From: Alphaproteobacteria bacterium
GTDB lineage: Bacteria; Pseudomonadota; Alphaproteobacteria; MPNO01; UBA830
DNA: 64,000 nucleotides
Assembly (NCBI GenBank): GCA_965243135.1
Contig: OZ251539.1
Span: 1,504,001-1,568,000, forward strand
Reading direction: 5' to 3'
The notes under the pieces are model-generated. The model was given only the letters and a program-made list of their open reading frames with translations, searched no databases and had not been told where the DNA came from. The translations under genes and the position numbers were made by a program. Positions 8,038-10,714 of the stretch are shown piece after piece (the first letter of the stretch is position 1; each line of letters begins with the position of its first letter).

Positions 8038-9813
8038 TCAAGGGGCCGAGAGCGTTATGCGGAACGCGTGATCGACGGAGGCGCGGGCCGCCGCCGCGGC
8101 AAGTCCGGCCTCGGTTCCGGCGCGAATTCGATACAGCGGCGCATCGCGGGATATCCGGTCGCCCGGGCGCGCCATGAGTTCGATTCCCGCGCCCTTGTCG
8201 GCCGGCGCGCCCGCGGCGCGGGCGATGCCCGCTAGTCGAAAGCAGTTCACGGCTTCGATTTCCCCGTCGGAGCCTGCCGCGACCTCGGCCGCGTGAATTC
8301 CGACGGCGACGGGTTCGGGAACGCGGCCTTGGGCGGAGATCATTCGCTGCAGCGTTTCGTGCGCGGCGCCGCCGTCCAGAAGATCTTGCGCCCGCTTGCG
8401 GGCGTCGGCCTCCGTCATGGCCGGATCGAAGCGGAGAACGGCCGCCGCGAACTCCAACGCCTTTTCGCGCAGGTCGGCCGGCGCGCCGGCGTCGTCGCGC
8501 AGCACCGCCAGCGCGTCGCGCGCTTCCAGCGCGGGTCCGACTCCCCGTCCCACCGGTTGGCGTCCGTTCGTCAGGCGAACGTCGAGCTCGAGCCCCAGCG
8601 CCAGGCCGACATGCAGGAACAGGTCGCGCAATTTCGTCGCCGCGGCCTCGCCGCGAACCTTGGCGGTGGGACCGACCGGAACGTCGATGACGCAGTGAGT
8701 GGCGCCGGCCGCAACCTTCTTCGACAGGATCGACGCCACCGACCATGCGAGAGAGTCGATCCGCCGCGGGCGGGTGATCGCGTTCATCACGTCGTCCACT
8801 CGCGAGTGGGTTAACCGACCGTTCCAGACGATGCATCCGTTGGTCTCGCGCACGACGCGCCGCACCGCGTCCGCGTCGAGGTCGACCCGCGCCAGAACTT
8901 CCATCGCGTCCGCGGTGCCCGCCGGGGACGTGATCGCCCGGGACGACGCCTTGGGAATCGTCATGCCGTGCGCCGCGACGATCGGAACCACGATCGGAGT
9001 GATCCGGCTTCCCGGAATGCCGCCCATCGAATGCTTGTCGGCGACGAGATCCGCTTCCCACGCCAGCCGCTGCGCGAACTCGATGCGGGCGCGCGCAAGA
9101 CTGACCGTTTCGTCTCTGGCGAGCGTGGCCGCGGTCGCCGCCAGAAAATCAGCGACTTCTCCGTCGTCGAAACGGCCGGCGACGATGTCGCCCAACGCCT
9201 CCCGATAGCCCCTGCAGTCGAGCCTCGCGCCGTTGCTCTTGCGAACGAACGGCGAAGGATGCGATCGCGTGCCGCGGCGAAGCGCGTCGACGAAGCGGTC
9301 GACTCCCTCCTGCACGGTTCCCTCGTTGACGATCGCAATGCGGCTCGCGCCATCCGGAATGTCGGGGGAGGGTCGCGAGAGACGGCGGGCGATGTCGGCG
9401 GTCGTCTCCCGGGATCGCCTCGAAAGGCGAGCGGCAAGGATTTCGGTCGGCGCGGTCACCTCGAGCAGGAGGACGGGGGAATAGCGCGCGATGGCCTGGC
9501 CGACGATTCCGCGCGAGACGTTCGCGACGACGTGACGGCCGGACGCGAGCTCGGTTTCGCAGGAGGCCGGTATGCCGTATTTCAATCCGTGCGCGTTCCA
9601 GTGAAGCATGAATCCGCCCGCGGCGAGGCGTTCCGCGAACGCGGTCCGGGACATCGCTTCGTGGCGCTCGCCTCCGGCGGCGCACGGTCGCGTGATGGCG
9701 CGCCGGACGAAAGCGTACCGGGGGTCGCCTGCGAGCGCGCTGCGCGCGCCGTCAATCAGGGTGTCCTTTCCCGCGCCGCTGGGACCGACGACCAGGACGA
9801 GCGTGCCGGACAT
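8038..9813 (-). CDS. phnN: Fusion of ribose-1,5-bisphosphate phosphokinase (PhnN) and AMP/NMP phosphorylase-type domain
   Basis: N-terminal ~180 aa: VVGPSGAGKDTL, RRAITRP, WNAHGLKYGIP, VANVSR (PhnN). C-terminal: DKHSMGGIPG, IPKASSRAITSPAGTADAMEVLA, ASILSKK, QPVGRGVGPALEA, DKGAGI (AMP phosphorylase type). One continuous ORF. Confidence 0.88.
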   Translation of the reverse strand: MSGTLVLVVGPSGAGKDTLIDGARSALAGDPRYAFVRRAITRPCAAGGERHEAMSRTAFAERLAAGGFMLHWNAHGLKYGIPASCETELASGRHVVANVSRGIVGQAIARYSPVLLLEVTAPTEILAARLSRRSRETTADIARRLSRPSPDIPDGASRIAIVNEGTVQEGVDRFVDALRRGTRSHPSPFVRKSNGARLDCRGYREALGDIVAGRFDDGEVADFLAATAATLARDETVSLARARIEFAQRLAWEADLVADKHSMGGIPGSRITPIVVPIVAAHGMTIPKASSRAITSPAGTADAMEVLARVDLDADAVRRVVRETNGCIVWNGRLTHSRVDDVMNAITRPRRIDSLAWSVASILSKKVAAGATHCVIDVPVGPTAKVRGEAAATKLRDLFLHVGLALGLELDVRLTNGRQPVGRGVGPALEARDALAVLRDDAGAPADLREKALEFAAAVLRFDPAMTEADARKRAQDLLDGGAAHETLQRMISAQGRVPEPVAVGIHAAEVAAGSDGEIEAVNCFRLAGIARAAGAPADKGAGIELMARPGDRISRDAPLYRIRAGTEAGLAAAAARASVDHAFRITLSAP

Positions 9814-9820
9814 GCGGCGG

Positions 9821-10714
9821 CTACTTCAGGATCGTGACGTCGAGACCGATGTCGGCGGCGGGAGCCGACTGCGTCATGCGGCCGACGGAAAGCGCGTCAA
9901 CGCCGGATTCGGCCTTTTCCGCGATGTCGTCCAATCCGATGCCGCCCGAAGCTTCCGTGCGGCAGCGGCCGGCGACGATTTCCAGTCCCTTTCCCATCGT
10001 CTCGGCCGACATGTTGTCGAACATGATGACGTCGGCGCCCGCCGCGGCGGCTTCCTCTACCTGTTCGAGCGTGTCGCATTCGACTTCGATCTTGGTGAGG
10101 ACCGGCGTCAACGCGCGCGCTTGGGCGACCGCCTTGGTTATCGAGCCGTGCACCGCGATATGGTTGTCCTTGATGATTACGCCGTCGTGAAGGCCGAGGC
10201 GGTGCGGGCGGGCGCCTCCGACGCAGGCGGCGTATTTCGAGAGCAGCCGCAGGCCGGGCACCGTCTTGCGGGTGTCGATGAGCTGCGTTCGGGTATGGGC
10301 GATCGCCGAAGCGTACCGGTTCACCAGAGTCGCGATGCCGCACATGAACTGAAGGACGTTGAGCGAGGTGCGTTCGACGGTCAGCAAACCGCGCGCCGGC
10401 CCCCTGACTCTCATCATCGCCGCGCCCGCGCCGGCCTTCGCGCCGTCTTCGACGAGAGTCTCGACGGAAGCATCCGGAACCATGTGGCGAAACACTTCCG
10501 CCGCGACCTCGATGCCCGCGACCACGATGTTCTGGCGGGTGTTCATCGCGAAATCAGCCCTTGCGCCGGCCGGAATCAGAATGTTCGTCGTCAGATCCCG
10601 GTCGCCCGCGTCTTCGGCGACCCAGCTTTCGATCATGCGGCGAAGCGCTTCCGCCGAGGGCAGGAGAAATCCCGGATCTCCGCGCATTTCGCTCGGCGCG
10701 TCCGTTTTCGTCAT
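9821..10714 (-). CDS. nadC: Quinolinate phosphoribosyltransferase (nicotinate-nucleotide diphosphorylase, carboxylating)
   Basis: DTRKT, HRLGLHDGVIIKDNH, EVECD, DNM, EASGGI, DIGLD. Confidence 0.93.
   Translation of the reverse strand: MTKTDAPSEMRGDPGFLLPSAEALRRMIESWVAEDAGDRDLTTNILIPAGARADFAMNTRQNIVVAGIEVAAEVFRHMVPDASVETLVEDGAKAGAGAAMMRVRGPARGLLTVERTSLNVLQFMCGIATLVNRYASAIAHTRTQLIDTRKTVPGLRLLSKYAACVGGARPHRLGLHDGVIIKDNHIAVHGSITKAVAQARALTPVLTKIEVECDTLEQVEEAAAAGADVIMFDNMSAETMGKGLEIVAGRCRTEASGGIGLDDIAEKAESGVDALSVGRMTQSAPAADIGLDVTILK

Follow-up and report, generated by a model that had tools for sequence, protein, structure and literature searches.

Introduction

The described systems that come closest to the one treated here are an archaeal nucleotide phosphorylase, the PhnN kinase of the carbon-phosphorus (C-P) lyase pathway, the salvage of quinolinate by orphan NadC, the upper nicotinate pathway of Eubacterium barkeri and the nicotinate phosphoribosyltransferase (NAPRTase) PncB. 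Each has something in common with a two-gene locus, nadC followed by a fusion of PhnN with a nucleotide phosphorylase, that lies at positions 8038-10714 of a 64,000-nucleotide stretch of alphaproteobacterial DNA (the window; GenBank assembly GCA_965243135.1, contig OZ251539.1, positions 1,504,001 to 1,568,000 of the forward strand), whose genes were annotated from composition-filtered open reading frames (ORFs) and family scans and whose host genome is a single contig of 6.10 Mb, 98.8% complete. On the evidence of sequence and gene context, the pair may form a module that converts quinolinate to nicotinate by way of the ribotide while recycling phosphoribosyl pyrophosphate (PRPP), a proposition to which we give about even chances.

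In Thermococcus kodakarensis, the nucleoside monophosphate (NMP, or AMP) phosphorylase TK0352 is described, in the accessible part of the source, as cleaving AMP, CMP and UMP to ribose-1,5-bisphosphate (R15P) (PMC9700705). Its phosphate and ribose motifs, HS-GG and PK-SSRAITS-AGTAD, recur in the fusion, and its product is what a fused PhnN would need. Unlike TK0352, the fusion stays below the cut-off of the AMP phosphorylase model TIGR03327, has here the form of about 590 residues without the N-terminal domain and carries ten clade-specific residues; it is joined to PhnN, not to R15P isomerase and RuBisCO, and its proposed substrate is nicotinate mononucleotide (NaMN) rather than AMP, CMP or UMP. 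Neither R15P isomerase nor RuBisCO is among the annotated window genes, no search aimed at either having been made. With the PhnN of the Escherichia coli C-P lyase pathway the fusion shares an equivalog-level family match and an intact P-loop, but here PhnN is a domain of a larger protein and the only PhnN in the genome.

Orphan NadC, which salvages quinolinate in Bordetella and Streptococcus pyogenes, resembles that of many of the present carriers in that nadC occurs without nadA or nadB, but the salvage ends in NAD and involves no phosphorylase. The part of the literature on this salvage available to us cites PhnN as a supplier of PRPP for NAD synthesis, places orphan nadC beside TctC/Bug-type quinolinate-binding proteins, reports 'phnN' beside nadC in Variovorax and Jezberella, and shows bug69, not the fusion, after nadC in classical Bordetella (PMC11452294). 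Because NCBI names such fusions PhnN, the 'phnN' of Variovorax and Jezberella is probably the same fusion. The upper nicotinate pathway of the E. barkeri type shares with the window an enamidase (structure 2vun) and, as candidates, a reductase homologue and a molybdenum (Mo) enzyme (matches to 3hrd chains A, B and D); no nadC or phosphorylase figures in the published descriptions found, and the lower part of the pathway here seemingly employs a CoA-transferase and an acyl-CoA dehydrogenase. PncB, finally, is an ATP-coupled NAPRTase, and from general knowledge the reaction proposed for the fusion, NaMN + Pi + ATP <-> nicotinate + PRPP + ADP (Pi, inorganic phosphate), is close to the reverse of its own; the two differ in that their folds are unrelated and the proposed direction is opposite, and the NAPRTase family PF04095 is absent from the host and its family.

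A literature search found no description of a quinolinate-to-nicotinate cycle or of an NaMN phosphorylase, in keeping with an earlier note on this DNA, whose author was aware of no description of the route. In a fungal study the 3-hydroxyanthranilate and nicotinate pathways are proposed to work together ('joint action'), and its accessible part names no linking enzymes (PMC7842363). Each part of the module belongs to a known family; the novelty lies in how they are combined and in the substrate proposed.

The gene pair and the reactions proposed for it

The pair and the DNA around it comprise the following features.

9821-10714, minus strand: nadC, quinolinate phosphoribosyltransferase (QRPTase), 297 amino acids (aa) (TIGR00078, PF01729, PF02749)
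9814-9820, minus strand: spacer of 7 nucleotides (nt) between nadC stop and fusion start, CCGCCGC on the coding strand (sequence read)
8038-9813, minus strand: fusion of PhnN and nucleotide phosphorylase, 591 aa (TIGR02322, NF003338)
9259-9813, minus strand: PhnN domain, fusion residues 1-185 (TIGR02322)
8038-9249, minus strand: nucleotide-phosphorylase domain, residues 189-591 (NF003338; structure match 4ga4/4ga5/4ga6)
10715-10811, no strand: intergenic region 5' of nadC, shared with a divergent small ORF (10812-11189, plus strand) (ORF list)

NadC scores 302.4 bits against TIGR00078 (cut-off 198.4), an equivalog-level match, and both QRPTase domains are found in it, PF02749 at the N-terminus (69.5 bits) and PF01729 at the C-terminus (189.1 bits). 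Its TAG stop codon is followed by the 7 nt and then by the ATG of the fusion, so that sequence and family scores bear out the earlier note, which had placed the end of nadC 7 nt before a fusion of PhnN and an AMP-phosphorylase-type domain. The PhnN domain also matches its model at equivalog level (TIGR02322, 193.3 bits over residues 3-179, cut-off 156), and its P-loop, GPSGAGKD, is intact, with G, S, G, G, K and D kept in 118 of 120 database homologues. A profile search found no second PhnN elsewhere in the host genome. There is no phn gene among the annotated window genes, as the earlier note had also said, and the C-P lyase context is lacking to that extent, the phnGHIJKLM families not having been searched genome-wide.

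A scan of 7900-11300, in itself little informative, detected no terminator-like site between nadC and the fusion and no sigma-70-like promoter by consensus; the one terminator-like site of that region lies upstream of nadC on the minus strand (10895-10877). A search for an operator that the region upstream of nadC might share with promoters elsewhere in the cluster turned up a single recurring word, AWAATCGK; its 9 occurrences, where 6.3 are expected, are reached in 17 of 100 shuffles, and it was dropped for want of enrichment.

NadC, by its equivalog-level family function, would turn quinolinate and PRPP into NaMN, CO2 and pyrophosphate (PPi). The phosphorylase domain is predicted to cleave NaMN with Pi to nicotinate and R15P, and the PhnN domain, by family assignment at equivalog level, would convert R15P and ATP to PRPP and ADP. 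The net reaction would be quinolinate + ATP + Pi -> nicotinate + CO2 + ADP + PPi, with PRPP catalytic. Nicotinate could then pass to a Mo hydroxylase, a 6-hydroxynicotinate reductase and an enamidase, whose genes lie in the same window here and in the same operon in other genomes. In the host itself the module would probably be a branch point, where NAD synthesis has first call on NaMN and what is left over is cleaved.

A distinct clade of phosphorylase domains

The phosphorylase domain (residues ~190-586) reaches 523.3 bits against NF003338, the archaeal-type thymidine/AMP phosphorylase group (cut-off 434), and this broad subfamily is the only archaeal-type model it passes, the AMP_phos model TIGR03327 giving 365.6 bits for the fusion (cut-off 535) and TIGR02645 417.9 (cut-off 434.6). 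Nor does it reach the cut-offs of the models for true thymidine or pyrimidine-nucleoside phosphorylases (TIGR02643, 118.1 vs 570.7; NF004490, 167.6 vs 269; TIGR02644, 159.3 vs 409). The nearest solved structures for residues 190-580 are those of the T. kodakarensis enzyme (4ga4, 4ga5 and 4ga6, 247-249 bits). Database homologues of the fusion come in two lengths, ~590 aa, the type of the window, and ~680 aa; in the alignment the longer form keeps the archaeal N-terminal domain of ~85 aa between its PhnN and phosphorylase parts, and the window protein and the other ~590-aa forms are without it.

When the domains of 17 fusions were aligned with 64 stand-alone phosphorylase domains, ten positions stood out at which a residue common to at least 94% of the fused domains is absent from the stand-alone ones (fused/stand-alone: R243/M, S262/C, S269/N, N331/G, L334/A, H336/L, N344/I, T347/E, W357/Q and F455/L). 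At nine of the ten the stand-alone domains are at least 98% fixed on another residue, and at position 334 they have Ala in 62%. The signature is kept in 115-120 of 120 further database homologues of the fusion, with the exception of S269 (100 of 120), and by alignment the T. kodakarensis enzyme is in the stand-alone state at seven positions (M243, N269, G331, L336, I344, E347 and L455). Six of the positions (331-357) align with a segment of human thymidine phosphorylase, the Y199-K221 region, which we take to carry base-binding residues. Relative to the stand-alone type, the fused clade has acquired Arg, His and two Asn and lost one Glu. It keeps the phosphate and ribose motifs, and its base pocket has probably been remodelled; the gains and the loss would fit a different base, possibly an anionic one such as nicotinate, and the ten clade-specific residues suggest a substrate other than that of the stand-alone or T. 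kodakarensis type.

Conservation and inheritance of the pair

A pattern scan of 185,579 species genomes yielded ~593 phosphorylase relatives, and the best 80 loci were examined (loci are cited below by L numbers and genomes by G numbers; many of the carrier genomes are metagenome bins). A PhnN part is present in 16 of the 80, and a NadC homologue lies upstream on the same strand in every one of these 16. The two genes are adjacent in 15, an opposite-strand MarR gene intervening in L017, and in L032 the halves of the fusion occupy two frames. In the flanks fetched for the 64 stand-alone phosphorylase loci, neither nadC nor PhnN occurs. The carriers range over alpha-, beta- and gamma-proteobacteria and include Bosea, Rhodoplanes, Methyloligellaceae, Afifellaceae, Cupriavidus, Caballeronia, Salinicola and several metagenome bins.

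Within the family of the window (26 genomes, 7 genera), the fusion was matched in 24 of the 25 other genomes, full-length in 18 and fragmentary or split over contigs in four (G017, G022, G024 and G039). Two family genomes have it broken by stop codons or in pieces (G026:C2:3382839-3395790 and G030:C8:66634-67509), possibly as pseudogenes or through assembly errors. In all four further family genomes looked at, nadC directly precedes the fusion, and the gap is 7-30 nt in the five family members examined. The genome of L016, G001, gave the same hits in the same places as G033 of the family and is therefore not independent of it. Among 300 other genomes sampled across the class, 2 of 39 PhnN matches stand in an open frame long enough for the fusion, so that the module is rare overall and fixed in a few lineages. 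The survey of co-occurrence for which the earlier note had called thus found nadC upstream of the fusion throughout, in 16/16 fusion loci and 4/4 further family genomes, and the pairing is beyond chance.

The phylogenies tell a similar story for both genes. A maximum-likelihood tree sets the 17 linked NadC apart from six second NadC copies of the same genomes (support 97/96), copies that are 38-45% identical to the window NadC, and a FastTree phylogeny places the 17 fused phosphorylase domains on one side of a branch and the 64 stand-alone ones on the other (support 100). The same sub-groups appear in the NadC and phosphorylase trees: the window with L016; L037 with L066; L018 with L019 and L020; L030 with L039; and L021 with L051. 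The trees indicate that nadC and the fusion are inherited as a two-gene module and evolve in step, and the grouping of Cupriavidus among the alphaproteobacterial Bosea and Rhodoplanes points, in these unrooted comparisons, to horizontal spread of the pair.

A triple fusion of NadC, PhnN and phosphorylase was considered but found no support: the open frames of 911 and 1039 aa that suggested it merely run on without stops through GC-rich DNA, and in L103-L106 the frame of nadC is not that of the fusion. A database search for longer proteins returned no NadC fusion, but only a phosphorylase with a Prs-like part (P0241) and a phosphorylase with a metallo-beta-lactamase-type domain; a triple fusion, at ~890 aa, would fall in the 'near' length range, of which the best 120 matches were covered.

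The stand-alone sister clade has a constant partner of its own. In 63 of its 64 loci (L024-L095; for example L047:11148-12122) the gene that comes after the phosphorylase, on the same strand, is ribose-phosphate diphosphokinase-like (NF005537/PRK07199, 323.8 bits vs 322), and the database protein P0241, of 1193 aa, is a stand-alone-type phosphorylase fused to a PRPP-synthase-like part. The stand-alone phosphorylase and the PRK07199-type gene are an uncharacterised conserved pair.

NAD synthesis in the host, its family and other carriers

Profile searches of the host genome found a single nadC, no nadA (two models), no NAPRTase-family gene, PF04095 included (two models), and for nadB a best match of 321 bits, below the cut-off of 452.75. 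The lack of nadA and nadB that the earlier note had read from the window hence extends to the genome, for nadA outright and for nadB at the cut-off, and the separate housekeeping nadABC set that it wanted looked for is not there. As sole nadC in a genome with neither nadA nor a NAPRTase-family gene, the host nadC must supply NaMN for NAD. A purely catabolic role of nadC is excluded in this genome, an outcome that the earlier note had listed among those refuting its idea, whose interpretation is therefore supported in part. In four other fusion genomes (G002, G006, G014 and G016), however, a second nadC lies ~0.1-1.8 kb from nadA and the linked nadC is an extra copy.

The host encodes a 3-hydroxyanthranilate 3,4-dioxygenase (TIGR03037, 254 bits vs 146), flanked by a Rid-family gene and efp/epmA, which is housekeeping company, and a kynureninase-like gene whose 219 bits are just under the cut-off of 246; no tryptophan 2,3-dioxygenase was found in the genome. 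Quinolinate may come from outside or through the 3-hydroxyanthranilate route. The family as a whole has neither nadA (0/26) nor PF04095 (0/26) but does have 3-hydroxyanthranilate dioxygenase, in 23 of 26 genomes and in all 13 high-quality ones.

Beyond the family, nadA is present in 6 of the 16 other fusion genomes. A second nadC copy occurs in G012 as well as in the four genomes just named, and in G011, which has nadA, the linked nadC is the only one. Ten of the 16 have, like the host, a single nadC, and apart from G011 these have no nadA. PF04095 is matched in 13 of the 16, weakly in three, and in neither G008 nor G016.

Nicotinate catabolism around the pair

The earlier note had pointed to a nicotinate dehydrogenase, reductase and enamidase set, and an enamidase gene and candidates for the other two are indeed found in the window, together with other genes, several of which recur beside the pair elsewhere.

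27529-31148, plus strand: Mo hydroxylase of the xanthine-dehydrogenase family, candidate nicotinate dehydrogenase (3hrd chains, locus homologues)
27562-28386, plus strand: FAD subunit of the Mo hydroxylase (family scan)
28398-31148, plus strand: fused 2Fe-2S/Mo subunit (family scan, 3hrd match)
31157-32599, plus strand: 6-hydroxynicotinate reductase homologue, 69% identical to the L023 gene between Mo enzyme and nadC
40386-41536, minus strand: enamidase gene, 71% identical to L037:4785-6005
33925-34713, plus strand: AA_synth (PF06684) protein, with homologues beside the fusion in five other loci
37555-38166, plus strand: second AA_synth copy (PF06684)
15318-15821, plus strand: MarR-family regulator (MarR-type families)
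12780-13994, plus strand: acyl-CoA dehydrogenase (NCBIfam score below equivalog cut-off)
14017-15240, plus strand: family III CoA-transferase, closest to succinate-glutarate CoA-transferase (NCBIfam score below equivalog cut-off)
11247-12812, minus strand: UbiD-family decarboxylase adjoining nadC (family scan)

Against 3hrd the Mo enzyme scores 288, 228 and 132 bits for chains A, B and D, its best single chain being aldehyde oxidoreductase 1sij (403 bits); its counterparts next to the fusion in L023, L037 and L066 share 53-58% identity with it. NCBI and JGI give the name 6-hydroxynicotinate reductase to homologues of the 31157-32599 protein at 73-82% identity. The L037 homologue of the enamidase matches the enamidase of PDB entry 2vun with E = 6.3e-107. 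An apparent frameshift in the window gene at ~41298-41306 is resolved by one extra A behind 41298 in contigs of all four public runs, from two studies; the frameshift is accordingly an assembly error and the enamidase intact in the organism, a pseudogene being ruled out by read-derived contigs with the frame intact. Both 8038-10714 and 40300-41700 recur in public runs, near-identical in those of one study and with 35-81% of the sampled words in sponge metagenome runs of another, and since contigs from the sponge runs are 90-100% alike on the enamidase stretch, close relatives live in the sponge samples.

Neighbouring genes were clustered over 17 loci, the window included, several of which are short, so that absences there mean little. 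The reductase homologue stands beside the pair in 7 of the 17, the Mo hydroxylase and AA_synth genes in 6 each, the enamidase in 4 and the same MarR type in 9; at least one of reductase, enamidase and Mo enzyme is found in 9. MarR homologues 27-64% identical to that of the window accompany the pair in L016, L022, L023, L030, L034, L037, L039 and L066. In L023, MarR, FAD subunit, Mo subunit, reductase (Hnr), a PRK04334-family gene, nadC and fusion make up a single same-strand run with 4-nt overlaps. The neighbours in L034 (Salinicola), a 1136-aa protein with 2Fe-2S and cytochrome-c parts and a flavin monooxygenase of the 3-hydroxybenzoate-6-hydroxylase type, bear a likeness, no more than suggestive, to the aerobic type of nicotinate degradation. 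Of the 26 family genomes 20 have an enamidase orthologue, counted as a match of at least 588 bits or a fragment at 64-71% identity, and so do 10 of the 16 other fusion genomes; of the 300 class genomes sampled 14 do, and one of these is a fusion candidate too. Related genomes in these counts are not independent. A link of the fusions to nicotinate genes, the other half of the survey that had been proposed, is thus seen both in the 9 of 17 loci and in these 10 of 16 genomes.

The acyl-CoA dehydrogenase and CoA-transferase, whose region (12780-15240) is syntenic with L016, are candidates for the lower nicotinate pathway, which in the host may be an Azorhizobium-like glutarate route. Genes for uptake also lie beside the pair, TctC in L017 and L055, TRAP-TAXI in four loci and an MFS transporter in L021. 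For Bug-type TctC proteins, the available part of one study reports sub-micromolar affinity for quinolinate in vitro (PMC11452294). A cluster of TctC neighbours from six loci was set aside, as it arose by single linkage and held shadow ORFs inside the fusion, with only L017:8756-9748 and L055:12052-13044 confirmed as TctC.

Other observations concern the wider surroundings. In L016, the locus of the closest relative, three UbiD paralogues lie around the pair (6253-7686, 11858-13438 and 13469-14968), for which pyridine (di)carboxylates are possible substrates. Genes for both subunits, alpha and beta, of a 2-oxoacid:acceptor (ferredoxin) oxidoreductase stand at 23894-26933 on the minus strand, just upstream of the Mo hydroxylase and reductase genes, and a homologue abuts the L066 cluster; as a low-potential electron source for the reductase this enzyme is a speculation. 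Proteins of ~390-410 aa with a weak match to SIR2_2 (PF13289) follow the fusion in L034 (11973-13211), L037 (12072-13232) and L066 (12198-13346), a possible link to NAD turnover. Scattered over the catabolic region of the window, at 4864-5988, 38420-40141 and 61053-62630, are one Rpn-family recombination nuclease/transposase homologue and two AAA-ATPase_like (PF09820) genes, the gene at 38420-40141 also matching PDDEXK_9; they may account for a cluster that extends over 30 kb in the window and is compact in L023, L037 and L066.

Weighing the proposed cycle against its alternatives

The proposal in full is that the fusion would be an NaMN phosphorylase and R15P kinase which, with its dedicated NadC lineage, would decarboxylate quinolinate in a cycle costing one ATP, serve as a catabolic entry and have spread horizontally among alpha-, beta- and gamma-proteobacteria; we hold it tentatively, at slightly below even chances. 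The quinolinate would be host-derived or would come from tryptophan or 3-hydroxyanthranilate, a part of the proposal on which our confidence likewise falls a little short of even. We infer the NaMN phosphorolysis from the exclusive and co-evolving link with NadC, whose product is NaMN, from the fusion to an enzyme that consumes the product of phosphorolysis, from the nicotinate operon context and from the specificity signature. The extra nadC in genomes that already pair nadA with nadC, the co-occurrence of enamidase and the uptake genes beside the pair also speak for the proposal. In the family, where no NAPRTase-family gene is found (0/26), released nicotinate could not be salvaged, so that a catabolic fate makes sense and fits the enamidase in 20/26 genomes.

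Several results weigh against this proposal. In the host and the whole family nadC is the sole copy and needed for NAD, and a co-expressed enzyme that cleaves NaMN would compete. The UbiD-family decarboxylase beside nadC could in principle decarboxylate a pyridine dicarboxylate directly. Enamidase is unmatched in 5 of the 16 fusion genomes (G002, G006, G008, G011 and G014), G010 has only a 41%-identical paralogue, and within the flanks of the Cupriavidus and Caballeronia loci there is no nicotinate gene. Conversely, the fusion is missing from 13 of the 14 enamidase-bearing genomes of the class sample, which makes the module an optional addition to nicotinate catabolism and not part of it. The coupling of the stand-alone sister clade to a PRPP-synthase-like gene in 63/64 loci implies, moreover, a tie to PRPP that is older than the NadC link and needs no NaMN, and the solved relative is described, in the part of the source at hand, as cleaving AMP, CMP and UMP (PMC9700705).

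The last two points lead to the principal alternative, in which the fusion cleaves AMP, CMP and UMP to R15P and thence makes PRPP for NAD synthesis by NadC, from salvaged or de novo quinolinate, and nicotinate is no product. It is favoured by the substrates of the nearest solved relative, the T. kodakarensis NMP phosphorylase, by the sole nadC of the host and of 10 of the 16 other fusion genomes, and by the sister clade, coupled in 63/64 loci to an enzyme of a PRPP-forming type with which it is fused in one database protein; the one paper found that names nadC beside phnN also reads PhnN, in its available part, as the PRPP donor for NadC (PMC11452294). Many pathways use PRPP, however, and the explanation offers no reason for an exclusive link to NadC (16/16); it leaves unexplained the second, separately evolving nadC in genomes that have nadA and nadC, and the placement within nicotinate-catabolic operons, and the ten constrained positions differ from the AMP-phosphorylase-like residues. 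We consider it unlikely, though a serious contender.

A module run in reverse as a substitute for PncB would make R15P and ATP from PRPP and ADP, and NaMN and Pi from nicotinate and R15P, and so salvage nicotinate. Nucleoside phosphorylase reactions are, from general knowledge, reversible in principle, and a NAPRTase-family gene is found in 0/26 family genomes and in neither G008 nor G016; yet most of the other fusion genomes, 13 of 16, do match PF04095, with weak scores in three, and NadC, the invariant partner, would be left without a role. The pyridinium glycosidic bond is, besides, energy-rich, and cellular ATP/ADP and Pi are high, which would make cleavage the expected thermodynamic direction (from general knowledge). 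This reverse run seems to us very improbable. Hardly better is our estimate of mere co-regulation, in which the phosphorylase acts on some other nucleotide, such as nicotinamide mononucleotide (NMN) from NAD turnover or one with another base, and the genes share a pyridine-nucleotide housekeeping role without a closed cycle. The SIR2_2-like gene after the fusion in L034 (by Pfam) and its cluster mates in L037 and L066 hint at NAD turnover, but NadC and the fusion evolve in step across alpha-, beta- and gamma-proteobacteria, the two genes stand 7-30 nt apart in the five family members looked at, and the three activities fit one cycle exactly; we regard co-regulation alone as improbable.

Significance

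Were PRPP supply for NAD synthesis the true function of the pair, the strict NadC-PhnN-phosphorylase module would still correct annotations and show a dedicated PRPP line for NAD synthesis. If instead the PRPP-recycling conversion of quinolinate to nicotinate is correct, it would add a new enzyme activity, NaMN phosphorolysis, and a new design principle, in which a regenerated, cofactor-like ribosyl carrier makes a phosphoribosyltransferase act as a decarboxylase. Quinolinate is an end product of animal tryptophan catabolism and a neurotoxin, and the module would supply the missing link between it and bacterial nicotinate degradation. It would also explain the persistence of 'orphan' or duplicated nadC genes, the role of widespread proteins of ~590 and ~680 residues that are annotated 'PhnN' or 'thymidine phosphorylase', and how a whole family lives without nadA and NAPRTase.

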